Of a stretch of DNA of 64,000 nt, positions 358-57,562 are shown one piece after another. The notes beneath the pieces were generated by a model. The model was not told the DNA's origin and searched no databases. It saw nothing but the letters and a program-made list of their open reading frames with translations. How positions within the stretch are numbered: the first letter of the stretch is position 1; every line of letters begins with the position of its first letter. The stretch covers positions 7,812,001 to 7,876,000 of the forward strand of contig NC_092672.1 of the NCBI RefSeq assembly GCF_964355755.1. Direction: 5' to 3'. The position numbers and the translations under genes are program-made. The stretch is from Antedon mediterranea. Lineage: Eukaryota > Animalia > Echinodermata.

Positions 358-3300
358 ATATTACATCATACAAGCCAGGTTTCTCAAAGCCAGGTAGGAT
401 AATATTATCAAATACTTCTTAAATTATCAAATACTTCTTCATTCGAAGAAATAGATAATGAACCATTTGTAAACTATGACTATGCATTATTACTATGCAA
501 ATACTAATAACTGTAATTATTACATTTACAGATATTATTACATTCAACAAGCCAGGTTCCTTAACTTTAGGTAGGCTATTATCATCAAATTCTTCTTAAA
601 CTCTAATAAGAAAAACAATTATTTGAATTGCTCATTCGAAGAAATGCATATTTAACCATTTTGTTAAAGTCAAAGTAAAACTTTATTCATCACTCACTGT
701 GCGAAACGATGTAGTTTATGATCCTATACATTATATTAAAATACAATAAAATTATAAACTATTTATAGACTATGCATTATGTACAATACTAGTATTTATT
801 TTATTTTATTTTATGTCTTTAGGCAATGTGGCCAAGGATTACCAATAGTGAATTAATCACTGTCCTATCAGATAGGTGGTAATCCCCCTGATACAGGGGC
901 TATTTTGTGAACCAGTTCACCGGGGTAACCCCTCCTCTTTTTCGAATAATGAACTAGGTTCTTTAAAGTGCACACAGGTTATAACTGCAGTGTAGAAGAC
1001 TTGTTCCACCACCAGAACTAGGAGCGAGTCGGCCTCGAACCCTTGCCGATGTTGTTGGCTCTTTAGGTACGGTAAACGGCGCCCCTGTCTTAACCGCTCG
1101 GCCATTTGACATTGATCTGTAATTATTAATCTACAGATATGACAGACGACAAGCCAGCTTTGTTAAAGTCAGGTAGGCTATTTTATCAATAGCTTTTAGA
1201 ATTATGAATTCCTCCCGTACTCAAAATGGACCTCGGGTACTAATCTTTCTCCATACTTCTGCATTATAATTCTTTTATAGTGGTTTGAGTGTCTAAAAGT
1301 ATATTAAAACAAATTAGAGTAATAAAACGTTTAATTTTCAGATCCATCATCTATGAGCCAACCCTCAACAGCCTCAACGGATGCAACAGACGTTGCAATG
1401 GCAGGTAGGTCGCTTATTTAGTTTTCATTATTTTAATAAAGAACATGCACTGTTTACCGATTCCATGCAGTGCTGTATCTCCACATACTAATATTTCCGA
1501 GGTATTATAGGAATATTTGGTAACACAGCATCACATGTAAGATTAGGTTAAGGGTTAGGTTACTACTACATACAACATGTGAAACACATGATGTTGTATT
1601 ACCAAATATTTCTATTCTTTGGAAATAGATACAGTACCGAAAATCGGCTGGTTAAATGAAATCAATTTAAGCTATTATATGTGGATGATAATTCAGTACA
1701 TTACTGTTTACTTTTCACATTTTTTTTTGTAATCGCGAATCAGTGTTATATCGTCATTACTCGACAAATGTGAGATTTATGATACATACGCATGAATTAT
1801 TCATTGCTATAAATTATTATTCATGTTGAAGACAGAACTTTACTAACCAAACTCTTCCACTTTGTACTGTAGGCCTACAAGAAGTAATGAGAAATAAGAA
1901 TGTCTGAAATTTACGATCAAAACTATCGTGCCTAACTGCTATTAATTCAAAATATTGATGATGTATATTATATAATAACATTCCAATTATTATTTTGATA
2001 CACAGAGACTTAAGAATAAGCATACAACATCATTTTCTGGCATATAAACATTTTATTGAAAAAAATGAATGTAACCTGCATGTGATTGTGGATATGTATA
2101 ATTCAAGTTAAACGCAGATTTTATTTTTCTAATATCACATTTATGCTCAGGAAAAAGCCCGTCTTATAGTTCATGTAATATTACATGTGGGTGGGCGGGA
2201 AAAAGGGGGAGATTAAAATTATCTTACTGAATAATTGTTGGAGACGTGAGAGCAGCGTGGTCCAAGAGGATTGTACCACGCCCTCTCACTTCTCAAAATA
2301 TAATCGTGTTAAACTTTGTTTTCACACAATTCCTGCTTTTTGATACACAGAGACTTAAGAATAAGCATACAACATCATTTTCTGGCATATAAACATTTTA
2401 TTGGAAAAATGAACATTCTAAACGTGTAACCTGCATGTGATTGTGGATATGTATAATTCAAATAGACGTAGATTTTATTTTTCTAATATCACATGGATGC
2501 TCAGGAAAAATCCCGTGGCAGGTATGAAACACCGCCGAAAGCAGCTGAAATTTACGATCCAAACTATCGTGACTAACTGCTATTAATTCAAAATATTGAT
2601 GATGTATTATAATAACATTCCAATTATTATATTTGAATTTTTAGATCCAAGCTCTACTACTGCGGACCAACTATCACCTGACGCAACAAACGATGCAAAG
2701 ACAGGTAGACAAACTAATGTGTTTAAAAAGAAAAATATAAAAACAATAGTTTCTTTTTGATTTACAGACGTTTAATCAATGTTGCCATCCCTCCATTACT
2801 AATAGTAATAGGCCTATAGTAGTACTACTATAGTAGTAGTTTTTGATCCTACATACATATGGCTATTCATTATCGATATCAATCATTTTTGAACATCACA
2901 TTGAATAAGGGAATTCAACACATGGCAGGCTACACCGTATCAGCTAAGATATGAATATAACGAATTTATTTAGAATAAAACATATGTAATTTTCAGATCC
3001 ACCATCTGTGAGAAAATTCTTAACAAACTTTCTCTACAACTATTTTGTCAAAAAAAGTTGGACTGTTTGCATGGGATGTATTTTTTTTAAATATTAATCA
3101 ATTATGTGTAATGTTATTACAGTAACGAATTCATGATTTAACCAGGGAAGATTGAAAATACAATTTGTAATTTTACTTTTTCCTGTTTTAACTATAACAT
3201 TAATTAATAATGAAATAATGTCGTCCTTCTATAGGTCAGTTATAGAGAGTGTAATAACGTATTCTTTAACGGTATGGTTCGGTAGCGCTACCGAAAATGA

Positions 3301-4419
3301 AAAGCGTGACCTAAATAGAATAGTCAAGACCGCATCGCGTATAATTGGATCTGCACAACTGCCTTTGGAGAACATATTTTCGGATCGTTTTCTGAAAAAG
3401 GCAGTGGCTATTAAAGATGATCAATTTCATCCGGCCTCTAGTATGTTCCAGTTGATGCGCAGCGGTCGGCGATTTCGTTCTATTAAGGCCAATAAGGCAC
3501 GATTTACAAATAGTTTCTTTCCAGGATCTATTAGAGCCTTAAATATGATGTAGACCCCTTTTTTTTTTTTGTAATGTTTTTGTTTTTGAGTTCGTGTTGT
3601 GTCCGTTGGATATTGTGCTCCGCCAACAGAGCAAACAGAATTTCTATGTTTTTCCTAAAACAAATGATAATAAATGATACTTGACTTGACTTGACTTGAT
3701 TATAAACTATTTATGTATTAATTCATGTATTTTTATATTTCGTTTTATTTATTATTACGTAATTATGCCAACATAATCGTGAACAAAGCCAGGCCTAATG
3801 TCCAATTTATTGTTGCTAGAAATGTCTTATATTGTTACCATTTAATATTTTAAACACATTTTTTGTAGATTTAACTGATGCAGAATTAACTATATTGATG
3901 GCAAGGGTATCTGGCTGGTGTACTACCAACGGGATAAACTTAAACAAGCTGAAAGTGGTAATGAGCGAGTTCACGAATGATAAGCTTACATTAGCCACGA
4001 TCCAGAAAAAGAGCAATGCTTTAGATCTGTTAAAACTACTGAGAGAGGCTGGATTAATTAATCCAACAGACATCAGTGTTCTCATTGAAATAATTAAATT
4101 GTCTGGGATTGAGGGTGTTCAAAGCGAGATTAAGGAAGAATGGAAGGTACCAAAATTCAAAGATGTTCAAATCAAACACGTTAGAGAGCATCGTAAGAAA
4201 CTTCTGGCGTTTGGTCGCAAAGTATCCAAGGAAAACGTCAAGACGATTGGATTTCTAAACAGCATCTTAGTTGACGAAAACACTGATCCATATTTCTTAA
4301 TTTTAGAATTAGAAAGAAATGGCTTACTCAAAGCAGGAGAAATGTTCGAGAAATTCATTAAGACACTTAAAGAATTTAATATGCATAATGAAGTTGATGC
4401 ATTAGAGCACGGTGAATAA
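358..4419 (+). CDS. Gene A (5' end outside window): S/T/P-rich micro-exon linker plus C-terminal tandem death-effector-domain (tDED)-like exon
   Basis: Phase 1-1 AG/GT exons 358-393 (DITSYKPGFSKP), 532-570 (DIITFNKPGSLTL), 1137-1172 (DMTDDKPALLKS), 1342-1404 and 2645-2704, then terminal exon 3869-4419 (DLTDAELTILMARVSGW...ALDLLKLLREAGLINPTDISVLIE...EHRKKLLAFGRKVSKENV...LILELERNGLL...NEVDAL). The two helical repeats follow the caspase-8/cFLIP DED pattern. The terminal exon has the same length (551 nt) as its homolog in gene C. Confidence 0.8.
795..1110 (-). mobile_element. tRNA-derived SINE
   Basis: The minus strand shows Pol III A box TGGCCGAGCGG and B box GGTTCGAGGCC, ending in an (AAAAT)n tail at ~795-812. 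A related body segment lies at ~43780-43845. Confidence 0.65.
1903..2630. repeat. Local rearranged direct duplication in a gene A intron
   Basis: ~1997-2160 is repeated at ~2338-2515, and ~1903-1995 is repeated at ~2544-2630 (order swapped). Confidence 0.7.
3210..3699 (+). mobile_element. 5'-truncated Rex1/Babar-type LINE (ORF C-terminus plus 3' tail)
   Basis: ORF SFYRSVIESVITYSLTVWFGS...LNRIVKTASRIIG...HP....FQLMRSGRRFRSI......RFTNSFFP is typical of the Rex1/Babar RT C-terminus, and is followed by AATAAA and a (CTTGA)n tail. Confidence 0.85.
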
Positions 4420-5539: not shown

Positions 5540-5610
5540 GAGAACCGAGACTCGAACTCGGACCGCCTGCTTGATATGCAGATGTCCTAACCATTAGACC
5601 ACTGGGCTTT
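5540..5610 (-). mobile_element. tRNA-like SINE head / tRNA pseudogene
   Basis: Minus strand TGGTCTAATGG (A box) and GTTCGAGTC (B box) with a T-arm CCGAG/CTCGG; the acceptor stem does not pair. Confidence 0.5.
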
Positions 5611-8551: not shown

Positions 8552-11500
8552 ATGTCTGTGAGTTTTAGACAAATCTCTTTTTTTCATAATTTTGTATTAT
8601 TTCAGTAATACCAGTATTTTCAAAACTCTAACTACATATTATATAAAGCAAACAAAAACTACATACATTATAACTATAGTAACCATGCCAATATGTGCAT
8701 AAATTGATAAATTTAGTGAATATAAAGTATATACGTAGGCCTAAATGTTTCACATATCAACGCTTTCCTGCTTTTTTCATTATTAATATGTATGTAACTT
8801 TTTTTTAACTATTGCTACATTATAGAATATTTTAAAATAACATTATAATCATTATAACATCAACCTTCCATCATTATAATAGAACCGAGGATTAGTTAAC
8901 TATTCTCGATCAGTACAACTACATAACAAACTGGCAGTACTGATGAATATAATTTCTTTCAGGAAAGAGGATACATTATGCTCTGCTATAGTTGGAAGGA
9001 CGAAAGGTAAGTTAAAATAATATATATTTTATATTATTATTATATTCCATGTAAACACGTGAACGTGATTGGTTCAAATGGCATCACATGGCTACCGTTC
9101 CGGGGATCAAAAATGTTATAACGGACTGATAAGTGAGTTTAAATGTAATATAACAGATATTGATTTGTGTATAGTGTAACAGTTGAGATCCTGCTTGGGA
9201 CTTATGCCTACATTTTTTTACTCGAGACTAATTATAAAATATAATTTCGTCGGGGGATCTCAAATGTTATAATCACTTCTAAGCAATTAATATCTGTATA
9301 ATAATAACTATACGAATAACTATTATTTTATAATATGATCTATATCGCATATTTAGAAATACATGTTTTTTTTTATAAAATAACACATTTTAGTAATACA
9401 TAATGAATGAAACATTTTTAATAATTTCAACAATAAAATTGTTAACGTTTATTAGAATCGTTGAAATGATATGGGAACGTTTAGAACAAGCCGGTTACAG
9501 AGTGTGGATTGACCGAAGTGGTACAGATGGACTGAAACGAAAACATAAGTCTATTTACATTGAAATGGCAAAGGCTGTCAAAAATGCGACGGTCGTAATT
9601 GGATGTTTATCTAAAGCATACCAGGAAAGCGAAAATTGTTTACGTGGTAAATGTTTGTATTGAATAATTTAAATATTTAAAACGATTCGTTGTTTTTGCA
9701 TTATTTTTGTTTAATCTACCCAGAACTAACATGGAAATTACATTATGTTTATAATTCAGAGGGCAATATGATCGGAAATCGTAACAAAGATTGTATTCCT
9801 ATAATTGCGGAGAAGGGTTATAAACGAAACGAGTGGGTTGAGACAATATTTGGTGGACAAATCTACATTGACTTTTCAAATGCAGAGGACTTTGAAAATA
9901 GTTTCAAGATTTTGCTTTTGAGGTTAAAAGATTACACAGATTTGGTAAATTATAATTGCATTATCTATTTATTGTTAATGTTCTTCCTCTTTTGGCCAGT
10001 GTTCCATGGTATAGAATAAGTTTCAATAATAACTAAAATCATTATATTGTTACAAGCATGCTCGTGAAAAAATGAAATCATTTTCTTTTTAAAAAATGAA
10101 TGTGAATTTGTTGTAACCAGACATAACTAAAATTCTTATTGAGAATAAATCTTTGTTCCAACATTTTTCATTCATTTCTTAGTTGAAATAAATAACATTG
10201 GTACCTTATGCGATCCTAATGCACTCCAAATTTCACGAAAATTGATCGAGTTAACTCTGTACTGCGTCATCTTTTCTTAAATATTTTTTCTGCTTACATA
10301 ATTTTATTATATTTTTTAGCATTTTCTAATACATAAATTGTCATGGCCAAATAAGATAAGAGATGTTTGGTATCATAAATAGTATTTCCTACAAGCATGA
10401 ACTAATCTAATGAACACATAAAGTTCGAAATATAGAATCACTTTTACTTTTACATAAACAGTAAAATATGTGAAAAGGAGCCAAAAAATAACTTTCTTTC
10501 AAAGTTTGACTCCTGTAACAAAAATAAATTATAAGCATAAATTTTGATCCAACAAAAATAATTCAATAAGAAAAAAACAACAACTATATAAAAGAAATAA
10601 AGTAAACATGTGCTAATGTTTTTGTAAAAGTGAACATTAACTTCATTTATGAATTTAAATCTTGAAGAGGTAAATTTTATAGCTAAGGATAAATTACTCC
10701 AAAGTTGAGCTCCATTAAAAAAAAGAAGTACGAACTTTCGGAATTGCAAAATTATTTCTATTACTAAATTTGGACTAGCATTAAGTGTAATTAAATATTT
10801 CATAGTTTGATGCGGTGTTTGCCATTAATTTGGTCATTAAAATTTAACTATACTTAAATCAATCAAACAACTTATAACCGTCTAAAATACCCAGGTCTTT
10901 AAATAATGGAGAAGATGGAGCCATAAATCAAAGAAAGTTAGGCCTATATACATCTAAGACACATTTTTTGGATAAGTAAAATAGGATATAGATGCGACTT
11001 ATATGTACTACCCCAGACTTCTAAAATCTATTTGATTGAATAAATGATTTATAGGCCTAAAGCATTAGTAAAATAATACGGGGTACAATATGGCGTAAAC
11101 TAAAAAGAATTCCATATTTCTTTTTTTTATCCTATATTTAATATATGGCTTTTCCATGTGATATGTTTATCTAATTTAACAACTAAAACTGAATTTCTTC
11201 TTTAATCATAACATTTTTTGTAATAAATATTGTTTGATTTAATAATAATTTTAGATCGGTTACAAACAAGGCCAACATCCATTAAGTCGCGTGCTACAAT
11301 GCATAGTGATACCGGACCGACAGACAAACAGACCAACAGACAGACAGACCGACAGACAGACGGACCGACCGACATAGTGAACTATACTGACCGAAATTAC
11401 TGAACATGTTTAAAAATGTTGAAATGTTTAAAAACATTTATATTTTTTTAATTTACACGTGCGTAGCCTGTCACTTTTGACGTGCTCGTATAACGTAATT

Positions 11501-14500
11501 TCGAGTTGAAAAGTAAGTCAAGAAAACAGAAATCGGGCAAAAAGAGTGCGCAATAACATTTAACGCGCAGTGCGCGCGCAAAAATCTGCGCACTCATGGC
11601 AATTTTGTAAACGCTTAAAATTGCCTGAAACGTACTCTTATTTCATCGAAAATAAATTTTGAAAATTTTAAGCGCGCGTACGCATGCGTTACATGCGCTA
11701 CGCACGTAATTGTATTGCCATATGATGATTTATGCCCTGAAATTTATGAGTACCAAATTTTATTTAATTGTGATTCATGGTTGTTAAGATATGATTACAA
11801 ACGTGATTTCGTTAAATCGTGCGTAGACCACGTAATTTTTTATTGCGCACCGTGAAAACATAACCACATCAATTCCTGGCCATAAGGAATATTCTGTGAA
11901 AAATTGACTTAGCTAGATTAAACTGATATCAAGATAAGGTCATAAAGCGATAAAACGCATAGTGATACCGGACCGACAGACAGACAGACAGACCGACAGA
12001 CAGACCGACAGACAGACCGACCGACCGACATAGTGAACTATAGAGTCGCTTCCACGCGACTAAAAACAATAGAATTAGTTTTGACAAAATTAACAGTTAA
12101 TTTATTAGCGTCATACCAGTTTGAAATTTTTTTTTTAAATGATGACTTACCATAGACAAATTGTCAAATAAGTTAGTGTCATCAGCAAATAAACGAAATC
12201 CATGGTTTATTTTTTGTTTTTGATCTTTCTACCATTGGGCCATGGATATTACTAAAAACAATATAAAAAGCGTAGGGAATGAGACTTTAAGGCTGTAGAA
12301 AATTCATCTATCGATATATTATCATCGTCCAATTTGGACTGATCTTCTAGCAGAATACATTGATGTTTATCTATTTTAACAGAATCTATATATAAATTTA
12401 CGTAAGGGCAAAATTCGGTAAATCGCGCCTTACTTCTAGAATTTTCACTCGATGGTATGTAAAGTTGGTTCGTACTTTCGGTACTGATTTTAACCGCCTG
12501 ATGTAACCCTGTTTACTAATTAAATTGAGTTAGATAATTAGTTATTGACGATTAAAACGAATTTAGGTTCAACGATTTGCCCCAAATAGGGGTGTTTTCC
12601 GATCGTGGTATACACTGTCTAATGGATGTCCATCTTGAAAAATACCCGCCAAAAAAATGCGAGGAGGCTTCGCATTTTTCTATCTCCTCCTACGATAATT
12701 GTTTTTAATAGCTGAAAACCGGTTGAACAGCTAGAGTACACCATCATAATGTTGAAGACAGGCCGATTTTCTTTAAAAAATACTATTTTGATAGATTTAA
12801 TATACGATTATACAAATGTATTGATTTGCGATGAATGGAACATCCCAATCTCTCAGTCTGCCAGAGTTTGGTTTAACACAAGTACTGTAGGTAAATTTAT
12901 GAGCCCTTGGTTTAACACATACGGTAGGTAAATATATGGGCCCTTTGAGAATAAACTTGCAATACTTTGACAATACTGTAAATACCTATTAACTATTTTT
13001 CATTTGAATCGAACATTTCTTACTGTGAATGTTCGTACTGTTAGATGTAACATAAAAATATATACAAATAAACTTTATTACTGAGACTGTGGATAGGCTC
13101 TACTGTTAGATATACAAATAAACTTTATACTGACAGTTCCTTCTCAACGTTTGTATTAATTAATAATTACCAAAAATATAAACGTCGTAGTGGTGTATCG
13201 TGACATGTACTTTAATATTTCAATCGATTATGACAGTGACAATTTTAACAAAGTATTAAATCGCAAATGTTTTAGGCCTACTGTATTTAGAGGTATATTA
13301 TTTATAGGCCTATAAAACATGAACAAAATATTTCGTTACTCAGTGGATAAAGAATATATTTAAAAATTGTTCCTCTTTGTACCTATCCGCTTTCCCATCC
13401 CTCAACCCTAATGTTACATAGCGAGGAGGCTTCGCATTTTCCTATCTCCTCCTACGATAATTGTTTTTAATAGCTGAAAACCGGTTGAACAGCTAGAGTA
13501 CACCATCATAATGTTGAAGACAGGCCGATTTTCTTTAAAAAAATACTATTTTGATAGATTGCTAGAGTACACCATCATAATGTTGAAGACAGGCCGATTT
13601 TCTTTAAAAAATACTATTTTGATAGATTTAATATACGATTATACAAATGTATTGATTTGCGATGAATGGAACATCCCAATCTCTCAGTCTGCCAGAGTTT
13701 GGTTTAACACAAGTACTGTAGGTAAATTTATGAGCCCTTGGTTTAACACATACGGTAGGTAAATATATGGGCCCTTTGAGAATAAACTTGCAATAGGTTC
13801 GGAAAATGTTAAAAACCAATTTCTATTATTTGAATCGGTAAACAGTTTCCATTTATTATACATTGATAATGAAACATGAAATATTCCTATTTATGTCCCT
13901 CGAGGTTCATTACAATTTATATTTAGTAGTCCCACGGACTTCATCTTAGCCACTCCCCCGAGTGCTAAGGCCAAATTTATGATACCCTACTTTCTATGTA
14001 AGTTTATGTGCTTATAAATTAAGACTCATGTAAACAGCTTGATTACATCATTTTACAGACAAACGAAACTTTTTTAAACCTACTGTTTCAATAACTGAGT
14101 ATAATACTGTATACGTTTTCATAAGTAAGCGCATATACATTTTCGTGTTTTCATTGACGAGATTGTAATAGTAACTTCAGTAACTATTACAGTACTTATT
14201 TATTATACGACACAAGACAATTGTATCTGACAGGTACGTACATTATTCTAAAAAATAAGTCTAGATAGATCCCTTAGGCGTCATAAATCACAGGCCAACA
14301 AATCAGTACTCATGACAGAAATTCGACCCAGTTTGGTTCACACAAATGTTTACAGGAATTTCAACACCACAACCGATGATTTGCCCTAAATATTTAGGTA
14401 GACTACAGTTTAATTTTTCACTGAATAGGAGCTTGCATTTCCGATTTCCATTTCGCAGAATGTCTAGGTCTATTTATTTAGTTTGGTTCTTATAATATAT

Positions 14501-17500
14501 AAATACAATCAACTTTATTACTGCGGTTCCATCACCACCACCACGTGCCGCCCAATTCCCGTACATACATTTCCATTTCTCCCTAATTTCTTTAATCCAC
14601 ATAAATTAATTGTCCTTTATGGAATCCAGTATTGGTTTTGTTGTCTCTATTTCTGAATACCCCAATTAGGGGGACACTTCCGTTTTTGTTTAGTGTCCCA
14701 AAAAAGTCCCCGTCCGTGGATTCTACTGTATTCGAGAACCATCTGTGAGCACCCCTAGATGGTACGCGAGCGAAGCGAGCGTGCCATCTAGTTAATACAA
14801 TTTATTGGATTACGGTCGAAGCGGCCGCCAACCAAAGCGGCCGCTAGTTCAATAACGGTAATTTGTATGGAACGCCGTGTGCGCTTTGATTGTCGTTGTT
14901 TTGTCATTTTTGATTGTCATTGTTTCGATCGTCAGGTTTTCTTTTCCTCGGACGTAAATAACAACTTACATTATTAATATTATGTAATATATTCTCTTTT
15001 TTGACAGATTGAATGTGATACCTTCTTTTAAACGAAATGGCGAATCGATGATTACTTACTTTAACTGTTCTAAATGATATAGGCCTATATGTTTAATAAA
15101 GTCAATAAAAAACATTGTGGTGTTTTTATTGTATAATATATAATATGCCAATTATTAAGAATAATATATATATTTTTTCAGTAAAATATATCAAATCAAA
15201 ATATATATATTTGTTATTGTATATTAATATATTAGTAAAGTAACTACTGTAAGTAGTACGTGTTCGCAAACATAATTTAATTACAATAACATGATGACAT
15301 CAATCTATTTATTTAATATCCTAAATTGTTTTATACCTTCAGATATATAAATATTGATCAATTTAAAATTAGTTTTAAATACTAAAATAAGACGCAAGTG
15401 CCTGTACGGTACGGTAATTAATTACGTGAATTTCTGCTAATAACTCGACTGGCGGCCGGCCAGGAATAGTGCTGTAGAAGGTCGCGTTTTCGTCTTCACG
15501 TTGCTTCATTGAAAACACAAACAATGTATTACAATGGAATAACACTTAAATGTATAACACACCCTATTACTAATAATAAAAACCAAGATTCGATAGTACA
15601 GTGTAAACGAGATATAAAAATTCGGCAATACCGTACGTAACTTATTATTGCAATACTGTATAAAGATTCGATGTAAATGAGATATAAATATTCGGCAATA
15701 CCGTACGTAAATTAATGCAATACTGTAAAGATTCGATGTAAATTAATGAGATATAAATATTCGGCAATACCGTACGTAACTTATTATTGCAATACTGTAT
15801 AAAGATTCGATGTAAATGAGATATAAAGATTCGGCAATACCGTACGTAAATTATTAATGCAATACTGTAAAGATTCGATGTAAATGAGATATAAATATTC
15901 GGCAATACCGTACGTAAATTATTATTGCAATACTGTATAAAGATTCGATGTAAATGAGATATAAAGATTCGGCAATACCGTACATGAATTATTAATGCAA
16001 TACTGTATAAAGATTTGATGTAAATTAGATATAAATATTCGGCAATACCGTACGTAAATTATTATTGCAATACTGTATAAAGATTTGATGTAAATGAGAT
16101 ATAAAGTTTCGGCAATACCGTACGTAAATTATTAATGCAATACTGTAAAGATTCGATGTAAATGAGATATAAATATTCGGCAATACCGTACGTAAATTAT
16201 TATTGCAATACTGTATAAAGATTCGATGTAAATGAGATATAAAGATTCGGCAATACCGTACATGAATTATTAATGCAATACTGTATAAAGATTTGATGTA
16301 AATTAGATATAAATATTCGGCAATACCGTACGTAAATTATTATTGCAATACTGTATAAAGATTCGATGTAAATGAGATATAAAGATTCGGCAATACCGTA
16401 CATGAATTATTAATGCAATACTGTATAAAGATTTGATGTAAATTAGATATAAATATTCGGCAATACCGTACGTAAATTATTATTGCAATACTGTATAAAG
16501 ATTTGATGTAAATGAGATATAAAGATTCGGCAATACCGTACGTAAATTATTAATGCAGTACTGTAAAAAGATTCGATAGTATGTAAATGAGATATAAATA
16601 TTCGGCAATACCGTACGTAAATTATTAATGCAATACTGTATAAAGACTCGATAGTATGTAAATGAGATATAAAGATTCGGCAATACCTTAATAGTACGTA
16701 AATTATTATTGCAATACTGTAAAAAGATTCTATGAGATACAAGGATTCAGCAATACCGTACGTAAATTATTAATGCAATACTGTATAAGGATTCGATAGT
16801 AAATGAGATATAAATGTTCGGCAATACCGTACGTAAATTATTATATTGCAATACTGTAAAAAGATTCGATAGTATGTAAATGAGATATAAAGATTCGGCA
16901 ATACCGTACGTAAATTATTATTGCAATACTGTATGAAGATTCGATAGTATGTAAATGAGATATAAATATTCGCCAATACCGTACGTAAATTATTAATGCA
17001 ATACTGTTAGACAGGTTCCATTTCTCAAAAAACGGCCTAGAAAACGAATCAAGAAGCATTTTTGGGTAGAAGCTGGGATCCACTTGATTTAGGATATTTC
17101 GACCTCGCTGATTACGAATATGGCGGATCCCAAGCGAAATTCGGCCATCTAAGCCCTTAATTTGCATAATTAAAAATGGCGGCCATTTTTTATAATTACC
17201 CTATATCTCGAGAACCACTAGTCACAGATAATTAATATTGGTCTCAAAATGTTTTAAATATATGTTTTTATATTCACTTTAATGACACATTTTCTCAAAA
17301 AATGGATGCAAGTCTTATTTCTGACATTTTGACCTTTGACCTTGATTTATCGTATCTCAGTAACCAATAATCGGAGAGACACGAAATAGGGCTCAAATTG
17401 TTTAGAAACTATACATTCATATTTATTATAATGAAATGTTTTTACAAAAAATGGCCGATTCTACAACTATTGACCTTTGAACTATTAGTCAAATATAATA

Positions 17501-23500: not shown

Positions 23501-23505
23501 CATAA
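8552..23505 (+). CDS. Gene B1: TIR (TIR_2-like) - linker - coiled coil - Death domain protein, ~318 aa
   Basis: Exons 8552-8557 (MS), 8963-9006 (ERGYIMLCYSWKDE), 9456-9646 (…GYRVWIDR…VIGCLSKAYQESENCLR), 9760-9944 (EGNMIG…IPIIAEKGY…IYIDFS…), 22340-22412, 22775-22969, 23243-23505 (LMDLAKKLGTEWKQVGVYLGF…FSMLDRW…LTKALKESDREDLADEV, Death domain). All introns are GT-AG, and the total of 957 nt is in frame. Confidence 0.85.
11262..12066. mobile_element. Helentron-associated (DINE/HINE-like) non-autonomous element
   Basis: (GACA/GACC)n microsatellite blocks and a terminal hairpin agtcgc-ttccac-gcgact next to an A run. Short copies occur at ~22550-22650, ~38347-38450 and, reversed, ~54590-54712. Confidence 0.55.
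12385..14791 (+). mobile_element. Non-autonomous Helitron
   Basis: Starts A|TC(TATATATAAAT), ends with a GC hairpin (acgcgagcgaagcgagcgt) and CTAG|T. Has an internal duplication of ~12660-12963 at ~13421-13794. Its 5' kb is repeated at 51755-52790. Confidence 0.8.
15585..17007. repeat. Tandem minisatellite, ~60-64-bp unit
   Basis: Over 20 copies of aaagattcgatgtaaatgagatataaatattcggcaataccgtacgtaaattattattgcaatactgtat. The unit resumes at 20960, after the Academ insertion. Confidence 0.95.
18229..19370 (-). pseudogene. Disrupted Academ-type transposase C-terminus (XPG-like nuclease plus Cys-rich finger)
   Basis: Minus-strand motifs SIK..TR, FL...NK.DLARFL, DHEESDTR, RDTDVLVI, FHTISGCDTTSY, LPPT..AVHQHIKRAHFQ...W and CGCK..C....C.C.K..L.CT..C.C, broken by stops and frameshifts. 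Confidence 0.75.
19386..19769 (+). pseudogene. Inverted second copy of the transposase Cys-rich C-terminus
   Basis: 127-aa ORF nearly identical to the minus-strand fragment at 18229-18605. Confidence 0.75.
21503..22100 (+). mobile_element. Interspersed repeat (HINE-like) with TGACCT motifs, CA-rich tract and embedded tRNA-like segment
   Basis: Terminal hairpin acctccttggcggaggt, (CA)n-rich tract ~22021-22060, and A/B boxes TGGTGTAATGG / GGTTCAAGTCC at ~21653-21710. Confidence 0.5.
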
Positions 23506-38800: not shown

Positions 38801-39319
38801 ATGCATTTTAGATTAAAATATCTTTTTTTTTAATCTAGGCCTATATATTATATAGATGTGTTAATGTATTCAATTTACTTACTTTACTTTCTTTCGTTAA
38901 GCATAGTCTCGATAGATAGAGTAAAATAGAGTACTTAAACCGAACTGGGATTTAAAATTAACAATCTCAATTCAAAACAGGAATATGAAGAATTTTATTT
39001 ATTTGTAACATTATAATTGTTATTTTTCATCAAATAAAGAGTTCCTTTTTATATAGATGCAACCAATAAATTAATGGATTTGGCAAAGAAATTGGGCACT
39101 GAATGGAAACAAGTTGGAGTATATCTTGGCTTCAAGCAAGAAGATTTCTATCGGTTTGAAAATGATAGTGGTAACAACACAGCATGGGCAATTTTCAGCA
39201 TGCTGGACCGATGGTATAAGAATGCAGAAATTCATGAGAGGTATGAAAAACTTACTAAAGCGCTCAAAGAATCCGATAGGAAGGATTTAGCAGATGAAGT
39301 TCAAAGTTGGCTAGCATAA
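35840..39319 (+). CDS. Gene B2: TIR - linker - coiled coil - Death domain protein (paralog or allele of B1), ~318 aa
   Basis: Exons 35840-35845, 36221-36264, 36795-36985, 37103-37287, 38135-38207, 38590-38784 and 39057-39319; all GT-AG, in frame, with the same sizes as in B1. Confidence 0.88.
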
Positions 39320-43052: not shown

Positions 43053-46038
43053 TAAAATACAATTGTAAATGTCGCCCTCTATTTTTTTTTGTTTACATAG
43101 CGACCATCATTAGAATCATTTTAATTGATAATATTTTTAATTTAATAATTATTTTCAGAAGTCTCAGAAGTCATATAATGTTTTATTATACTTCTTTTTA
43201 TTTTCTAGACCCGCTATATATTTTTTACAAATATTTAAAGTATTTTAAAATAATACTAAAGCAGTGAGTGATTGTGTGAGCATGACCTTTTGACCTAAAA
43301 ACCTTTCATTCACACCAAAACACTGGGGTGTCCCCGCAGTTCACTCTCCGGAGAATGTTCAGCTGTTCAACCCCGCAGTTTTAAACTCCGGAGTTGCTTG
43401 ATTTTACCTTTCACATCAAAACAACTCCGGAGTGTTTTGCTTTGGTGGTGTGAATGAAAGGGGTATTATTATTACTAAATGAAGAATTTGTATCCCCATT
43501 ATAAGTCTAAAACGTGCTAATCTGGGAAACAACTGATTTGTGTTATATGGGGTATATACATCATACATACAGGGAGAACGGTGAATAATTACATTTCCAT
43601 TCTAAACTATTTGCTTATCAACATGTTGTGTAAAACAATTTATAGATGTAAATTTTTGTTTGTTTACATTGCTTGCATTTTCTTGAATAATAATAATAAC
43701 TGAATAATTCGGATTAGGACCTTTACGGACCCACGACAGCCACGTCACCGGCTACCATGAACGACATGGGATTAAATGGACCAGTTCACCGGTGTAACTC
43801 CTACTCTCTTGAGAAAATGCACCGAGTCCTTTTAAAGTGCACACGTTTTTTGTAATAGTGATAATATTGTTTTAAGCTAAATTCACACGGAAGATGGTGT
43901 ATACACAGAACATATAATATACAGAATTGAACGGTGAACGTTCTGTGAAACGGAATAAGTGTGAATGTAGATTCTTAGGACGTACAGTAATAAAGTGGCT
44001 TTTCTATTCTTATTTATTTAGTTATGTTTGTTTATATTTTGTTGTTTTATGTAAACTGGTTGACACATATAACCATTATGTAAAACTGTAAACAATGAAA
44101 AAAGATAAAGTAAACACCACAAAACGTAATTTGTGTTTATTAATCGTTAATCATGATGACTGACAATAACATAAATACTAAAATGTAATCATATTTCCGA
44201 TCGATGATTAGCGGTTTATACGCCCTCAAAATATGTTGTATCATTGAACTTGATTCCCTTATCTAAAATGGTATGGGCCAATAGAAAACAGGAGTTTATG
44301 AATACAATTATTTTTACATAATAATTATCATAACATTTTTAGATTATTTTTATTAATATAATGTATGTTTGTTATTATCAATAATATGGTTCTTCCATTT
44401 TATCGTTTTCAAAGAATGAACAGGTCAAATCATGTTCTAGGTGCTATGTTGCACGTATAGTTTATGACTATAACCATGCGGATGATATGTTTACTTTCTC
44501 TGTGGTCTAATGCCCGGATCCTATAGATCAATTTTTCATCCCGGATTTTCCCTTTTGATATTCGTATTTTTCAGACTTACATGATGTTTGTCTGTAAGGC
44601 CTGCATATCGCTTGACACTGTTACGTTCGTTTTATTATAACATAAGGAGGAATTATTTTAACTAAACTAATTCTTCGATGCTCACAGTAGGCCTATGTCT
44701 AAATAAAAATTATAATTCAATATTTATAATAATTCATTCCACGATTTAAACTTCTCGGAAAGTATAGGGCAAACATTGTTTGCAATTATATTGATCTATC
44801 TCGACACGGTTACTAAATTTGTACAATCGGTAATTTCCGCTCCATTCAAATGGATCAACAGTCAAATGATGAGAAATAAAATTATCCATTCGGATCAGTA
44901 GAGGGAGTGTTATGGGGAACAGCGGCAGGAAAGTGGCTCCTCGGTAAGTATTCAGTAATTTAATTTTTGGCCTAAACATTTTCCAGTTCCAGTTTTACGT
45001 ATATAATGTACCAAATGGTTGTTTGAAATGGTTATCAACTATCGAGTTTAAGTAGGCTGTAGTTATCTTTATCGAAGAATAATTATCACATTCCTCCACT
45101 GGGTATGGATTCGGTCAAGTGGATGAAGAATAATATGCAAGGATAAAAGGAATTCATGGATTTCACGGTTGATGTGACAATAGCCTATTCGTAACGTAGG
45201 TTGGGCTGCAGATTTGTTGCGAAGTATTTAGGGAAAGGCACCGGTGGATGTCGGCAATTAAGTAAGTTAGATGTTGTGTAACAGGGTGAATAGTCACACT
45301 TTTTTACTTCGTTAAAATATATTATACTGTTGATTAATGTTGATTTCCATTGAGCAGTCTGCGAAACGGGCATTTTTTAATTAGTGTAGCCTTAATAACA
45401 TTGCATTGGTTAAACGTTTTGTGATAGGCCTATATTTTTCCTTATGAAATATTTTACCGTATTCTATCCACTTAACGTGCCAAGCCCTTTCCAGATGTTT
45501 AGGAAATATTATCTAGAATTAACAGCCATCTTAATGTAGACCTTTTCCTTCCTGTAGTTATCACTATACATTTGAGATCATTAATGGTATATCTCAGCGA
45601 AGTCATCATTTGTTTATTATTTGTCATATTTTTTTCTCTTTAAAAACAAAAACGTAACACACGTAATCAATTTTTTATGAAGATTATTTTGTCAATATGA
45701 TAGACTACAAATTCGCTTGCTTTAATTCATATAAAACTATATTTTGTATTTCTGTGGTTCTTTCTTTTCGAATAGCTTCACTAACGAGATTTAATAACGT
45801 CGAACAATGTATTCCTTTGATAGGTATTATACATTGTAAACATTGTATTATTATCATGTCTAGGAATAAACTTTCAATTTGAAAGTCATCGGGAAATATA
45901 ATTCACGTGACGTCCACCTGACATGCATAAAGTAGTAGATACTATGATTGTTATGCTTAAAAGTAACTTGGTTTTAAATAAATTTTAATTTACAGATTTT
46001 GAAGTATTGAAGAAACTGTCTAAGTAAAGATATCAACC

Positions 46039-49000
46039 ATGACGGTAAGTAATTTATTTTATTATAAACATCTATTGGAGAGGAAAGTATCGAGAACAAT
46101 AGAATAAATTTAGTACCGTATACACACCAAAGTAAAACAATAAATAAGCCATACTACTACCATAGCTGGTCAATTTAAAGTTTCTTTATACACCGGCTCC
46201 ACATTTCGAAAACTTTGAATATAAAAATAAAAAACATAATTTATTTATGTCATTGCTATGTGCCTGTTTGCACTTTGTTCAATGCATTCGTTAAATATTT
46301 TTTTGTTTACTCCAATTGCCGTTGAATACGAATTTATGAATTATGAACTATATCTGTATCGATTTCACTGTTCAAACTAGGAATTATTCACTGTACCAAA
46401 TTATCATAATATAAATAAAGACTTATACCGTAATTCTATTATATCATTACTCTTACAGTATAATATGTATTGACATGAATTTATGTAATGTAATTAATGT
46501 GAATTGTTTTTAGGAAAGAGGATACATTATGCTCAGCTACAATTGGGCTCACAAAGTGTAAGTTTAACAAATAATAAAACAAGTAATAAGATATTTAGGA
46601 CTAACCATGCACCCGGATTTCAGTATTATACGCGTGATGACGCGCAAACGTCGTGTTTTATTCATTCTTGTATATCTAGTCACCATTGATAAAATTACAG
46701 ACTATAGAACAGTCAGGGTAAAATATATATAAATATGATTGGAGGAAAAGAGAAGGCAACATTATGACGTATTTCACAAAATAGTGACTAAATGCCGTCA
46801 AGAATTGCAACGTCATCGTATTACGTAAGCCTAAAAATGATATTAGTGTATAATCCATCAGTCATGTTTAGAGAACAATAGTTTTAAGAAAGAATCAATT
46901 ATTTTCTCTTCCTTAGAATCGTTAGAAATATAAGATACCGTCTATGGCAAGAAGGTTACAGAGTGTGGATAGATATTGATGAGAAGGATGGAATGAAAGA
47001 CTTTATTTACAGTGATATGCCTAATGCTGTCAAACATGCCACAGTTGTCATATCCTGTTTGTCTAAGAAATACGAAGACAGCCCTAATTGTAAAACTGGT
47101 AGGTCTGTTTTAATTGATTTTATATAAGCTTATCTAGGTTATCGACAGCGATTTATCTTAATATTCCTAACACATCTTGGCATACATGGCGTGTCATAGG
47201 CTAGCCCCAGTCTCTAAATAAATAATAGTCTTTTTATGTTGTTAGCATTCCACAAGTCATTTCGTGTCTACAAGCTACAGTTATTATACGTATGAAACGC
47301 CGCGTGTGTCTTTTTTAGCATTATTATGTCTATCTACACTATTTAGCGAGTGCCATACTTGACTTTGAAACTACAAACAAACATCAAAATATATCTATAT
47401 TGTATAACTTAAAGACAACAATCAATTATTAGAGAAACAATCATTAGAGACTTGTGGCAGGTATAATATCAAACAGACGATTTCGAGTTCGAATCTCCTT
47501 TATGTCATTTAACAAGAAAGACAATAATGCAAAAAATGCAGAGTCACCGTTATTATTAGGACCATTTTCCACTGGAAAACTGCAATGTCTTGAAACAAGG
47601 TGCAGAGAATAAAATTGATGGTGAGCTATATTTAATTTTTTTTTCTTTATTTTAGAGGGTGGTTGCATTGGACATTATAATAAGAAACGCATTCCACTAC
47701 TGATGGAGAAGGATTATAAACTTGACGACTGGGTTTTGGGAATATTTGTTGGACGAATTTGGATTGACTTTTCAAATGTAGAACGCTTTGAAGCCAATTT
47801 TCAGGAACTGCTTGCAAGACTACAGAACTACCCAACTTTGGTAAGTTAAACGATTCTACACGATTTATTGTATTATGCCCATTACAACAGACGGAACTGA
47901 AGATTGAGGACTCCTTACTAACCCTTAGCCTATAGAAAACAAACCCATTCTTTGTCAACCCTAATCATACAATAATAGATCTCACTTTTTGTTATACCAT
48001 AAGAAAATCATTTTTGTTACAGAATCCAGAGAAGAACAACCGAATACCAGCTAATCTACCGCTACCTGAACCACTTTCTTCGAACACAAATCCAAGTATG
48101 TTAAAGATTTATGTAGAAATTATCTTAACAATTAAGCTAAATAATTTAATATGCTATTTCAGAATACTATATTTACTTTTAAATTACAAGTAGTCTTGGA
48201 ATAAGCTTGGTGATAACCTACGTATATCATATGACTCCCGGGAGGCAAATGGTAAGTGTAATTTGAGTGGGGCTCATTGTTGTAGGCTTCGTCAATTCAA
48301 ATAAGCTTTTGGACACATTAGAATAAAAAGCATTGCCTGTCGATTAGAAATGGCAGAGGGTGAATTTATTTATTTACTCATATGAAATCTAAAAAACATC
48401 TACCATATAGCAAATTTAACTTAGCTGTATAAACACTGAAAAACTACAGTATATAAGCATAGGGAATTTAGGTTTTTATATCCAATTCAATTGTCTGTTC
48501 GCCATTTCCCTCTATTGTGGATGATAAAGGCAAGATACTTCTCATAAAATTCACAAATAATCTAAAAAAAAATTTACTTTTGTGTTTAGTTCCACCATCT
48601 ACATCTTCGGATCCTCCAGATACAGCGCCCCCAGTGGACACAACGGATAATCCACGTTCTTTAGGATCAGGTAAGCAAATCTTTCCTTAATCAGAAATGA
48701 CTTTTTTTTTAAACTATAGTTTACTGATAACATTTTAAAAGCTAACTGATCTATTTTACAGAAATATCTGGTAATCTTGAAGAGAGGACAACTAGTAGGC
48801 CTACAAGACCAAGTTACAGTAGGATTATATCAGAACATTAATTTCTTTACATAGGCCTATAATTATCATAGTAGGATCCTACACATTTCTACAGATAATA
48901 AACAAGAGATATATCATTGCATGTAAAGCAGTATAATTTATAGGCCTTGGGACACATCTCCTCTCAGACCTAATCTATACGTATTTCAAAATACATCAAC

Positions 49001-49666
49001 CACTAGTAACTGTGCTACTTTACCAATTAATATTATTATTATTATTACTGTATTTATTTTACATGTTAATTGTTATGAAAGAAACCATTATATAAATATT
49101 TTACTTTTTATATAGAATTGACTGAACGTGAATATGCAAGTCTGCTCGTAAAAGTTTCACAACGTTGGAAAAAGTTTGGCAACGTCCATATGTTGAAGGT
49201 ACTACTATGTGACTTTAACAAAATCGGAATAACTGAAATTCAAAAGAATAATGACGAATTTGAATTGTTTAAGTTACTCCGGGGTAGTGGTAAACTGAGT
49301 CCATCAAACATAGATGTTATCGTCGAGGCTGCGTTCTTATGCGGGGTAGGGGCTATTGAGGAGGTCATCCTGGATAAGATACCGGAATATCAGTACCCTA
49401 CGTCTAATAAAGAAATAAATACAATCACAAAATATCGCCAAAACGTGATCGAATTCGGAATTATTGTAAATCAAAGTAACTTGGAAGAAATTGTAAAATT
49501 GTCTAGTCTTCCTTGTAAGAAGGAGGCAGATAAGTGGAGTCTGATATTTGAACTAGAACTTCATAATGTACTGACTCCAAAGAATAAGGAGTCATTCATT
49601 GAAATGCTAGGAGATCTAGAAAATGACACGACGAAAGAAGTCGATGCATTGAACACTTACAAATGA
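46039..49666 (+). CDS. Gene C: TIR (TIR_2-like) - Pro/Ser/Thr linker - tandem DED-like protein, ~375-395 aa
   Basis: Exons 46039-46044 (MT), 46514-46557 (ERGYIMLSYNWAHK), 46917-47098 (…GYRVWIDID…VISCLSKKYEDSPNCKT), 47656-47840 (EGG…RIPLLMEKDY…IWIDFS), 48023-48095, 48590-48670, a probable micro-exon from 48762 (donor at 48770, 48794 or 48818, all phase 1), and 49116-49666 (tDED). Intron positions in the TIR are identical to those in gene B. Confidence 0.85.
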
Positions 49667-55491: not shown

Positions 55492-55523
55492 TTAAGTATA
55501 TCAATATATTTATTTTGTTGTAG

Positions 55524-57562
55524 AATTGGACTTCCAAACATTTTTGATGACGGTATCTCTATGGTGTGACAAACATGGGAATTTAAACAAGATGAAATTG
55601 GCGTTTCGTGAGTTTAATACAATCTTTAGAAGAAGCATAACACTTAGAGCTATTCAGAATGCGAAAAAATGCGTTTGATCTGATTAGAATGCTTATCGCT
55701 AATGGAATGATCCATCGAACAAATATACGTATACTTATTGAAGTTTTTAAAGTATGTGGAAGGGGTGGTGTTGAAAGCGTGATTAAGCCAGAATGGAATT
55801 TACCCAAATTCGAAGATGTTCCAATCACAAACATTTCGGATCACCGAAGAAAACTGATACAATTCGGTAACACAGTCACCAATGAAAACATGAGAGTACT
55901 TGGACAATTGTACAACATTAGAGAAAGAGATCCGTATTCTTTAACTCTACAATTAGATATAATGGGATATCTTACAGGAGACAAGATGAATGAATTCATT
56001 GAGAAACTTAAAGATTTGAAGATGTTTAATGAAGTTGATGCATTGAGTAAATATTTGACATATTTGACATTTCTATTCTATATCAAGAGCTTATCAACTT
56101 TTTTTTAAATTAATTTAAGCAGAAAGTGTGTGCCCTTTTGTAATGATTATTGCAGTATCAAGCCTATTTAGTTACTTTAAATACGTGTCTAATATTAATT
56201 AAATAATATTATAAAGTTATGAATTAATTAAATATTAGTACATGCCATTATTCACAAAATTTCACTAGATACCTAGTACTAGTCTACTTTAGTAGTAGGC
56301 CTATTAGGATTTTACTCTACTAGAATACGTGTTTGTGCATGTTGTATTATTAAACATGCACGTCGTTCGCAAGTTTGACAAAGATAAGTTGCCTTGTGGA
56401 AGCAATGCAATGGATGTTACACGTTACCGTAAACTGTTTGAAGAAACAGGTATTCATTTCATTGTCTGGATCTGTAGCACCAATTAGTTATAGACATGGG
56501 TTTAACACTGAAAGGTTAAAATTAAAATTCTTCTGAATTTAAAACTCATATCAAATAAAATACAATTTTTAAGAAAATATGAACATTTTTTTCGAAGACA
56601 TTTGATTTACCGTATAATTGACTTTTGATATGGAAATTTGAATCAGCGTTACTAAAGTATTATTTTGTTCATACTTCATACAAATCTTAAGATAACATTA
56701 TCATTATTACTTCTATGACAGAAGGCCACGGCGCTACTGGTGTGGCACATGGTGAGGCTACAGGTACACCAAACGAACCAACATCAATGACAGGTTAGGA
56801 GATTGTATGTTTGTGTTTTTTTGTGTGTTAAACTTAAATGTTTGATGATATAAAACACATTAATCTATAAGATTATGAAAGTTTCGTAATACAGTACAAA
56901 TTTCCAAATGAAAATTGTACTAGGAAGGTGTTTAAACATGATTAAGCACGTTACAGAAACATAATGTATACATACTGTATCATAGGCAGATAACACTGGT
57001 AAATCGTCTTATTATATTATTAGAATTAACAGAGGACGAATTCAATGAACTGTTAACGGATGTATCTCTTTGGTGGAAGAAACATGGAAACATTAACATG
57101 CTGAGAGTGTTGCTTAGCGAGTTTACACGTCATCATAACAGCATCGCTCTACACACATTAGAGGAAGCAAAGACACCTTATGATCTGATTCGTTTACTTA
57201 ATGCTTCAGGACTTCTCAAACCGACAGACATAGATATCCTCGTTGAAGCCACTAACTTATGCGGACTTCAGGGAGTTCGGGAAGCGATTGTGAAATCACC
57301 AAACTTCGACGTTCCATACAAAAACTTCTCAGACCATCGAAGAAAGTTAATAGCGTTGGGTCAACAAATGAATACAGACAACAAGCTAATTATAGGCCAA
57401 CTTAAGGACATTAGTGTCAACGATGACACAGATCCGTTTTGGTTAATCTTAAAATTGGAAATGAAAGGCACACTTGCAGAGGGAGAGAAGATTGAAAAAT
57501 TCATTGAACAAATGACACGTTATGGTATGACTAAAGAAGTGGAGGCATTGACAAAACTTTGA
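55524..57562 (+). CDS. Gene D: two tandem-DED-like exons (four DEDs) joined by a linker exon; +1 frameshift in the first; 5' exon not identified
   Basis: Exon 55524-56046 (LDFQTFLMTVSLWCDKHGNLNKMK…NAFDLIRMLIANGMI…SDHRRKLIQFG…NEVDAL, 523 nt, with an extra A in the A6 run at 55664-55669), linker 56722-56793, and terminal exon 57024-57562 (LTEDEFNELLTDVSLWWKKHGNINMLRV…SDHRRKLIALG…KEVEAL). All junctions are phase 1. Confidence 0.72.

Follow-up and report, generated by a model that had tools for sequence, protein, structure and literature searches.

Organization of the gene cluster

The window analyzed here, a stretch of 64,000 nucleotides from the genome of the crinoid Antedon mediterranea, holds between positions 358 and 57562 five gene models, all on the + strand, in the order A (a tandem DED, tDED), B1 and B2 (TIR–coiled coil–Death domain, DD), C (TIR–tDED) and D–E (tDED–tDED). 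An earlier note on this DNA had described five co-oriented models, and the GT-AG junctions and open frames of B1, B2, C and the listed exons of A bear this out. As that note also held, B1, B2 and C have a TIR module in common, with exons of 44, 185 and 73 nt and intron phases 0/2/1/0/1; the second TIR exon differs in length (191 nt in B, 182 nt in C), and most of the 73-nt exon after the TIR is linker. Every downstream module begins at a phase-1 acceptor, so any module swap keeps the reading frame. No N gaps were found in the window, and bacterial contamination was rejected because the genes are spliced and intron-rich.

Profile searches placed the TIR_2 (E 3e-10 and 2e-8) and Death (E 2e-13 and 6e-13) matches above the Pfam cut-offs, but the DEDs postulated in the earlier note fared less well, since the tDED exons of A (2e-5), E (0.01) and C (0.013) scored below the DED cut-off and D gave no match. 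A, D and E were assigned as tDEDs by alignment, and the tDEDs of the window genes are pairwise 31-43% identical. No caspase or pseudo-caspase domain was found in the window; A, C and E each reach a stop codon after the tDED exon, and there is no further coding match. Nor does any model of the window combine a single DED and a DD in one chain, which is the FADD layout.

Gene A (358..4419; RefSeq XP_071944121-124) encodes a protein of 256-268 aa in which a short low-complexity Ser/Thr/Asp/Pro tail (exons 358-393, 532-570, 1137-1172, 1342-1404 and 2645-2704) precedes a tDED encoded by a single exon (3869-4419; Pfam DED E 2.3e-5, below the cut-off). Its coding sequence begins with an exon upstream of the window, and otherwise the RefSeq protein, which has three isoform sequences, is the same as the present model. 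The earlier note had left the N-terminal part of this protein blank; the tDED stands, but a hidden upstream domain was rejected, as only the short tail lies there.

Gene B1 (8552..23505; RefSeq XP_071944125/126) encodes a TIR_2–coiled coil–Death protein of 318 aa from TIR_2 exons at 8552-57, 8963-9006, 9456-9646 and 9760-9944, a linker at 22340-22412, a coiled-coil-like exon at 22775-22969 and a Death domain exon at 23243-23505, and it has a 12.4-kb intron filled with repeats. Gene B2, a copy of B1 (35840..39319; RefSeq XP_071944129), has exons at 35840-45, 36221-36264, 36795-36985, 37103-37287, 38135-38207, 38590-38784 and 39057-39319. Both models are identical to their RefSeq proteins. They differ at 14/951 coding bases (8 amino-acid differences; dN 0.011 and dS 0.031, from few sites), so that the two TIR–DD genes of the earlier note are real as models but reflect one recent duplication rather than two independent architectures, and in both a 195-nt coiled-coil-like exon separates the TIR from the DD. 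The duplicate is set in repeat-rich DNA; between the copies, intron 2 shows 27 substitutions and 99 gap letters, and relative to B2, B1 carries an 11.5-kb insertion. The best PDB matches of the gene B DD are PIDD, THOC1 and RIPK1, and the domain also scores on PF20690 bDLD3 (E 1e-6), where Death scores higher. The DD exon gave one match among 28 candidates, B itself, which is weak evidence from a shallow word-index search.

Gene C (44914..49666; RefSeq XP_071944130/131, 392 aa, identical to the present model) encodes a TIR_2–linker–tDED protein, which confirms the TIR–tDED architecture described previously. It comprises a 5' UTR exon (44914-45261), an exon at 45996-46044 with the ATG at 46039, TIR_2 exons at 46514-46557, 46917-47098 and 47656-47840, Pro/Ser/Thr linker exons at 48023-48095, 48590-48670 and 48762-48818, and the tDED exon (49116-49666). 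A likely-RNA contig joins the 5' UTR to the tDED exon and skips exactly the predicted introns; the gap in this contig is 671 nt, the length of the seven predicted internal exons, over a genomic span of 3854 bases. Another contig, from likely-RNA run X1, begins exactly at the gene B DD acceptor, and X1 has B1-type letters at 8 listed positions. No run is recorded as RNA, and calling X1 likely RNA is a guess backed by the intron-skipping contigs; its sample differs from that of the DNA runs. Read in this way, the contigs support the splice models.

The last locus consists of tDED exon D (55524..56046) and, at 56722..57562, a linker exon (56722-56793) and tDED exon E (57024-57562). Both were correctly taken for tDEDs, and RefSeq joins them (XP_071944564, 332 aa), but a run of six A at 55664-55669 puts D out of frame in this assembly, so that the tDED–tDED protein proposed earlier is not intact. 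The RefSeq model starts at ATG 55659 and loses about 45 N-terminal residues, and no start exon was identified upstream of D.

The TIR domain and its putative catalytic motif

The window TIR passes the cut-off for PF13676 (TIR_2). On the main TIR exon of B, PF01582 reached 14.6 bits, short of its cut-off of 21.3, and it gave no match on full-length C. When the TIR profile was compared with the PDB, all five matches at E<0.01 were to Cat1 or plant RPP1-type TIRs and none was to TLR/MyD88, these being weak matches (best E 2e-5) confined to the N-terminal half of the TIR. Structures of TLR, IL-1R, MyD88 or MAL were absent from the 19 PDB matches, and SARM1/TIR-1 appeared only at E 1.5.

The Cys and Glu of the window TIR align with those of plant and bacterial NADases, and the Glu aligns with E158 of RPP1 chain 7CRB, the catalytic residue of RPP1. 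The Trp that precedes the Cys in these NADases (Cat1, RPP1) has a role in substrate binding and is replaced by Asn in all crinoid sequences aligned. S72, N74, C75 and E78 are invariant in 5/5 aligned crinoid TIR+tDED proteins, and the Cys and Glu are also retained in B1 and B2, while overall TIR identity falls as low as 27-55%. The TIR of B is 55% identical to that of C and keeps an open frame and the Glu; dN/dS between the two is about 0.6, which indicates only moderate constraint. A conserved phase-1 intron splits the codon of the putative catalytic Glu, E78 in C (47098..47657) and E81 in B (9646/9760-61 in B1 and 36985/37103-04 in B2).

A Glu in helix alpha-C with a neighboring Cys, as in C75/E78, is the motif given for enzymatic TIRs in PMC9153377. 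Such TIRs require oligomerization (PMC12162218; 10.64898/2026.04.30.722052). According to 10.64898/2026.04.20.719644, 12/61 Glu-bearing animal TIRs expressed alone in E. coli were active and 49/61 were silent, some being inactive because the Glu points away. A 2026 screen reports that some animal TIRs make cADPR and gives no mechanism by which they are switched on.

The tandem DED and its family in crinoids

The predicted structure of the C tDED (pLDDT 94) is a death fold, as the earlier note supposed. It superimposes on the caspase-8 tDED 4ZBW with Z 17.2 and an rmsd of 2.6 over 167 residues, and the nine best rows of the structure comparison are all tDED proteins. The C tDED shares only 13-19% identity with solved tDEDs, so that filament surfaces need not be conserved. 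Foldseek with the same model returned no row at E<=0.001 (best 5e-3, TM 0.70), and single-sequence and profile searches of the PDB left the tDED undetected, with cFLIP and FADD only at E 1.6-2.7. Complex prediction with four C tDED copies, in which the alignment was not used, scored 0.00 and speaks neither for nor against self-assembly, and AlphaFold2 on full-length C from a two-sequence alignment gave pLDDT 38, too low to serve as a model of the TIR.

All 22 tDED relatives looked up are crinoid, in line with the claim that the architectures are lineage-restricted. Homologue searches by word index did not go deep (2, 2 and 1 matches) and have little bearing on absence outside crinoids. TIR–tDED also occurs in Anneissia, and hence in two crinoid genera, and the crinoid tDED tag is found as well on NLRs, ROCOs, RIG-I, a caspase, a kinase and a Rel protein. 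TIR+tDED accounts for 6/150 tDED matches and occurs in three orders; a single clade for the tDEDs of these proteins was rejected (AU p 1e-7), indicating that TIR and tDED were joined, or joined anew, on several occasions. In 54/150 matches there is little beyond tDEDs. The closest relatives of the C and E tDEDs are encoded by other genes and not by their window neighbors. One protein encoded on the same chromosome as the window, P0002, accession XP_071945477, has two tDEDs, of which the N-terminal one is 71% identical to a tDED of the NLR P0034 and the C-terminal one 67% identical to the C tDED, making P0002 a candidate bridge as judged from sequence. None of 22 NLR proteins has a tDED in the clade of the window tDEDs, which leaves a direct NLR-to-C pairing without sequence support. 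P0028 is a crinoid caspase-8-like protein with two tDEDs. No paper describing TIR–tDED was found in a literature search, and among the Atlas rows listed, which hold only clusters of at least 50, no cluster has both TIR and DED families. Pfam largely misses this tDED family, which is therefore easily overlooked in echinoderm immune surveys.

Comparison with known systems

Orthology to MyD88, FADD and SARM1 was rejected on domain order and architecture, and no architecture of the window is orthologous to caspase-8 either. Like MyD88, B1 and B2 have a TIR and a Death domain in one cytoplasmic protein of about 300 aa, but MyD88 has an N-terminal DD and a C-terminal TIR, whereas B has the reverse order and an extra coil, a TIR_2-type TIR that carries the Cys/Glu motif and falls below the PF01582 cut-off, and a DD closest to those of PIDD, THOC1 and RIPK1. 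The tDED fold of C is that of the caspase-8/cFLIP/vFLIP proteins of the DISC and DED filament, and C, a tDED with a putative proximity-needing enzyme, beside the tDED-only A appears to mirror caspase-8 beside cFLIP-S. In contrast to caspase-8 and cFLIP, the cargo of C is a TIR rather than a caspase, its tDED is C-terminal and of low identity, and the cluster has no caspase domain.

The oligomerization-activated TIR NADases (SARM1, plant TNL RPP1/Roq1, Cat1, TIR-SAVED and TIR-STING), which include the best PDB matches, share the alpha-C Cys/Glu and tether the TIR to a self-assembling module, as the window proteins would through their death folds. Unlike them, the window proteins have no ARM/SAM, NB-ARC/LRR or nucleotide-sensing domain, and so depart from the ARM–SAM–SAM–TIR architecture of SARM1; their scaffold is a death fold, and they have Asn for Trp. 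Bacterial bDLD3/EAD adaptor–effector systems (PMC8195603) also place one small helical tag on sensors and on effectors including TIR, caspase and kinase, but the window genes are intron-rich and animal, with true metazoan DD and tDED, and the analogy does not imply descent. Lineage-specific TIR/death-fold shuffling in invertebrate deuterostomes is likewise seen in the amphioxus hybrids (PMC2575513) and in TIR group 18 of Toshchakov and Neuwald (PMC7075850), whose description fits the window TIR proteins in taxon and architecture. DED is among the TIR partners in no genome of Additional Table 4 of PMC2575513, a table that does not include crinoids. DED–NACHT and DED–RLR fusions are already known (DED-RLRs, PMC8662601).

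Proposed mechanism and alternative explanations

Since the TIR keeps the putative NAD-cutting Glu and is joined to a tDED or a DD, these proteins are likely enzymes that death-fold clustering would switch on. The fuller reading is that a TIR_2 with Cys/Glu, shuffled at phase 1 to a tDED (C) or to coil plus DD (B1, B2), forms NAD+-cleaving immune effectors activated in this way, and it is a tentative one whose chance of being right falls a little short of even. A tDED-bearing sensor (NLR, ROCO or RIG-I) would oligomerize on its ligand and recruit C through tDED contacts, with or without a bridging two-tDED protein such as P0002. Packing would then gather the TIRs, each on a flexible linker of about 70 residues, into composite active sites, with NAD+ loss or a cADPR-type signal as the output. 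By analogy, the TIR would likely take the place held by the caspase in vertebrates. Gene B would be a derived copy rewired to a DD platform, its coil possibly pre-dimerizing the protein, and gene A would act in the manner of cFLIP-S, tuning or capping the assembly, as would D–E if intact. Under this reading, a TIR fused to a caspase-8-like tDED offers a concrete, cheaply testable answer to how enzymatic animal TIRs are activated, and would tie DISC/inflammasome architecture to NAD+ signaling in an animal. The locus also records a rewiring step, in which a phase-1 exon swap transferred a TIR module from a DED platform to a DD one. A broader version, in which crinoid innate immunity runs on a tDED 'bus' nucleated by NLR, RIG-I and ROCO proteins, with two-tDED adaptors such as P0002 translating between tDED codes as ASC and FADD do and a TIR NADase in place of a caspase as terminal effector, is unlikely; if true, this would be an animal inflammasome that cleaves NAD+ to signal or kill, convergent with plant resistosomes and with the death-like-domain systems of bacteria.

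The earlier note is thus partly confirmed in what it observed and partly supported in what it made of it. Its clustered TIR effector gains specificity from the retained putative catalytic Glu, and we infer that proteins of the cluster may form filaments or act as decoys, as it proposed. Its treatment of the five neighbors as one module is not supported, given the divergence of their tDEDs, the closer relatives of C and E elsewhere and the frameshift in D; that a DD usually assembles with DDs and a DED with DEDs (PMC11874512) also counts against it. The cluster resembles a local array produced by duplication and exon shuffling, within a tDED family that extends across the genome.

It is possible, if rather less probable than not, that the TIRs are non-enzymatic scaffolds and that B and C serve as adaptors of the MyD88/FADD kind in reversed order, or as decoys, linking TIR receptors (TLRs, other TIR_2) to DD/DED complexes (caspase-8, kinases). 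Animal proteins that combine a TIR with a death fold have this role in the textbook view (PMC7075850), the Atlas feature search for C ranks MyD88 clusters first (0.84, a lead only), the screen cited above saw activity in only a minority of Glu-bearing animal TIRs, and crinoids have a two-tDED caspase-8-like protein in P0028. However, the preference for PF13676 over PF01582, the lack of receptor or adaptor TIRs among the PDB matches and the invariance of the Cys/Glu motif in otherwise divergent TIRs argue against it. Quite unlikely is a birth-and-death array of shuffled exons with no shared pathway, in which C is perhaps an old functional gene, with B1/B2, A and D–E as copies of recent origin or by-products in decay. 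Phase-1 acceptors that keep every swap in frame, the broken D, the very recent B duplicate in repeat-rich DNA, a DD exon with no relative detected beyond B and the many matches with little more than tDEDs would all fit such an array, whereas the splicing of B and C in a likely-RNA run from a separate sample, the open frame and Glu of the diverged B TIR, the dN and dS between B1 and B2, the isoforms of A and the retention of TIR–tDED in two genera do not favor it.

It is also improbable that the assembler set two haplotypes of a single gene in tandem as B1 and B2 and that the D frameshift is a homopolymer error. The number of coding differences between B1 and B2 is about that of allelic variation, and the break in D sits in an A run, but the window has no N gap, and the intron 2 differences and the 11.5-kb insertion in B1 speak against haplotypes. 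This alternative bears on gene count rather than mechanism and is compatible with the other readings. A further point against it comes from one DNA sample, in which contig X2-9 has B1 letters at 39899/39932/39939, whereas contig X4-18 lacks them and has 5 differences from B2, which hints at a third version of gene B besides B1 and B2.

Gene models and splicing

The TIR–tDED and TIR–coil–DD proteins are a real, expressed crinoid family inside a larger system that uses tandem death-effector domains (tDEDs) as tags. The window in which their genes lie is AT-rich (GC about 0.32), contains no N, and carries abundant dispersed and tandem repeats throughout. Its genes correspond letter for letter to RefSeq proteins of Antedon mediterranea, every one of which is named 'uncharacterized protein'. 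In models derived from splice signals, gene A (358..4419) encodes a low-complexity tail and a tDED; B1 (8552..23505) and B2 (35840..39319) each encode a TIR–linker–coil–Death domain (DD) protein of 318 residues, with eight differences between the two; and gene C (44914..49666) encodes a TIR–linker–tDED protein of 392 residues. These four models agree with RefSeq. The model of the D–E locus (55524..56046 and 56722..57562) reads tDED–linker–tDED, its frame shifted at an A run (55664-55669), and its 332-residue RefSeq protein starts after the frame break.

B and C have in common the start exon and exons of 44, 191/182, 185 and 73 nt with identical phases, and their TIR domains are 55% identical. 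Phase 1 is found at the end of the 73-nt exon and at the start of each later coil, linker, DD or tDED exon, and in-frame module swaps are therefore possible.

Splicing evidence for B and C comes from one study, run X1, whose RNA status is a guess. Bases 1-348 of a 1750-nt contig from this run align with 44914-45261, up to a GT donor of gene C, and its bases 1020-1748 align with 49116-49844, from the tDED acceptor onward. The 671 bases between, as against 3854 in the genome, equal by length arithmetic the seven predicted internal exons (49+44+182+185+73+81+57), whereas alternative exon models give 614 or 647. In a 748-nt contig, mostly B1-type in its letters, the DD exon match begins exactly at 39057; its 347 upstream bases would correspond to the coil and linker exons plus 79 nt of TIR exon 3. 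The 73-nt exon is covered by another contig at equal depth.

Domains and predicted folds

The earlier note had assigned TIR, Death and DED domains to these genes. At the profile level this holds for TIR_2 and Death, which pass the Pfam cut-offs, but not for DED, which falls below cut-off on every single window exon. The death fold itself is borne out by the AlphaFold2 prediction for the gene C tDED (55-row alignment, pLDDT 94), for which a wide structural search places the caspase-8 tDED at the top (Z 17.2, rmsd 2.6, 167 residues, 16% identity), followed by cFLIP and vFLIPs (Z 12-17), then single DEDs at Z 8-9 and, at Z 6 or below, other death folds. The DD of B is closest to those of PIDD, THOC1 and RIPK1 (best E 3e-5), and sub-threshold matches to coiled-coil families suggest that the exon between TIR and DD may encode a coil.

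Five crinoid TIR+tDED proteins, combined in one profile, share invariant S72, N74, C75 and E78. With E<0.01 this profile matches five PDB entries, which are Cat1 and plant TIRs of the RPP1 type; the crinoid Glu aligns on RPP1 residue 158, and Asn stands where these TIRs have Trp before Cys.

The tDED family

A search of 1.84 billion representatives with a four-exon tDED profile gave 179 proteins with E<=0.001. Partner domains in the best 150 of the 179, tallied from Pfam with labels assigned by hand, are NACHT (22), Roc/COR (18), TIR (6), LRR only (3) and NHL (2), with one each of caspase, kinase, RIG-I, USP, Rel, HEPN, ubiquitin-like, fibrinogen, ENTH, ZU5, TPR-AAA, ankyrin, B-box and Death; 85 have no partner domain. 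Taxon look-ups for 22 of these 150 gave crinoids in every case, 10 from Antedon and 12 from Anneissia, and a related DED cluster in the Atlas spans echinoderms. The order TIR–tDED occurs in Antedon gene C, and in Anneissia P0003 (TIR about 51% identical) and P0038, tDED–TIR in Antedon P0133 and in Anneissia P0139 (a divergent TIR lacking Cys/Glu), and tDED–TIR–tDED in P0041. The reverse-order P0133 gene (XP_071944411/412) belongs to the same TIR subfamily as the window genes and keeps the Glu.

A FastTree of 195 rows groups the window's four tDEDs in a single clade of 27 rows, and 23 of these rows form a clade with support 99/94 in a 54-row IQ-TREE subset, the group tested having been picked after the first tree was seen. 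Within the clade the tDED is mostly C-terminal, either carried by TIR, ROCO, kinase or TPR-AAA proteins or forming the second half of proteins with two tDEDs; the clade contains no NLR tDED. A single clade for the seven TIR-linked tDEDs is rejected (AU p 1e-7, LG+G4). In P0002 (XP_071945477), a two-tDED Antedon protein, the N-terminal tDED is 71% identical to one in the NLR P0034 and the C-terminal tDED 67% identical to that of gene C; judged by these sequences, P0002 may be a candidate ASC/FADD-like bridge or merely a product of shuffling.

Other fusions join a crinoid tDED to Rel (P0081, XP_071955940, Antedon), caspase (P0028, with two tDEDs), RIG-I (P0073), ubiquitin hydrolase (P0067), kinase (P0023, Anneissia) and HEPN (P0124, Antedon). 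The NF-kB-like P0081 seems unusual.

Possible mechanism

tDEDs polymerise and recruit within their own family (PMC11874512), and TIR NADases require oligomerisation (PMC12162218 and 10.64898/2026.04.30.722052). The favoured reading, put at a little under an even chance, is that assemblies of tDED or DD nucleated by a sensor would bring the crinoid TIRs together as working NADases or cADPR cyclases. The architecture, the splicing, the folds, the Glu and the recurrence are established. Against catalysis count the Asn-for-Trp change and the activity rate in animals, where 12 of 61 Glu-bearing TIRs are active when expressed alone (10.64898/2026.04.20.719644). A rival reading, an adaptor or decoy role with a non-catalytic TIR, is less probable. 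The earlier note took the five co-oriented neighbours for one lineage-specific innate-immune or cell-death module, but their joint action is unproven because the window tDEDs are 31-43% identical to one another and have their closest relatives in other genes. A second rival, a birth-and-death array with no common pathway, is judged improbable.

Relation to known architectures

Invertebrate TIR repertoires have reportedly been covered by Poole and Weis 2014, Gerdol 2017, Huang 2008 and Tassia 2017. The crinoid TIR–tDED/TIR–coil–DD family is apparently undescribed. Full-text literature yielded no description of crinoid DED families or of a TIR–tDED protein, an architecture that surveys of invertebrate TIR repertoires might list, and the terms 'TIR-DED' and 'DED-TIR' have zero occurrences in the TIR/DED literature retrieved by full-text search. 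The available parts of PMC8195603, PMC7075850, PMC5094078, PMC8662601, PMC11874512, PMC12162218, PMC9153377, PMC11797021, PMC12909245, 10.64898/2026.09.21.753143 and 10.64898/2026.04.30.722052 yielded no TIR–tDED description, and DED is absent from the TIR-partner lists in supplement 4 of PMC2575513. A ctenophore and anemones are known to combine TIR_2 with a Death domain, DED–NACHT and DED–RLR fusions are already known, shuffling domains in this way is familiar among invertebrate deuterostomes, and bacteria already offer a death-like tag with a TIR effector. What is new is a caspase-8-type tDED bearing a potentially catalytic TIR.

Repeats and mobile elements

A 138-codon open frame at 3137-3553 (+), in the last intron of gene A, had no match in a Pfam search; it seems to resemble the C-terminal part of the reverse transcriptase ORF of a LINE. 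Downstream of gene C, a 325-codon open frame at 50483-51460 (-) with a zf-RVT match (E 4e-6) is the 3' end of a LINE, and contigs from the probable RNA run cover it. The long intron of B1 holds a 3.9-kb palindromic element (17051-20926) with arms 99% complementary and decayed transposase-like coding, in which each arm carries a CXC-type motif (19374-19766; PF03638, E 0.044), and it resembles a fold-back transposon. Positions 58875-61153 hold about 230 copies of a 10-bp satellite, strongly strand-skewed, and 15602-17007 hold about 20 copies of a 70-bp minisatellite. Between B1 and B2, a 2-kb tandem duplication (26407-30386, 89% identity) has repeats in common with the region upstream of B1 and may mark the B1/B2 duplication junction.
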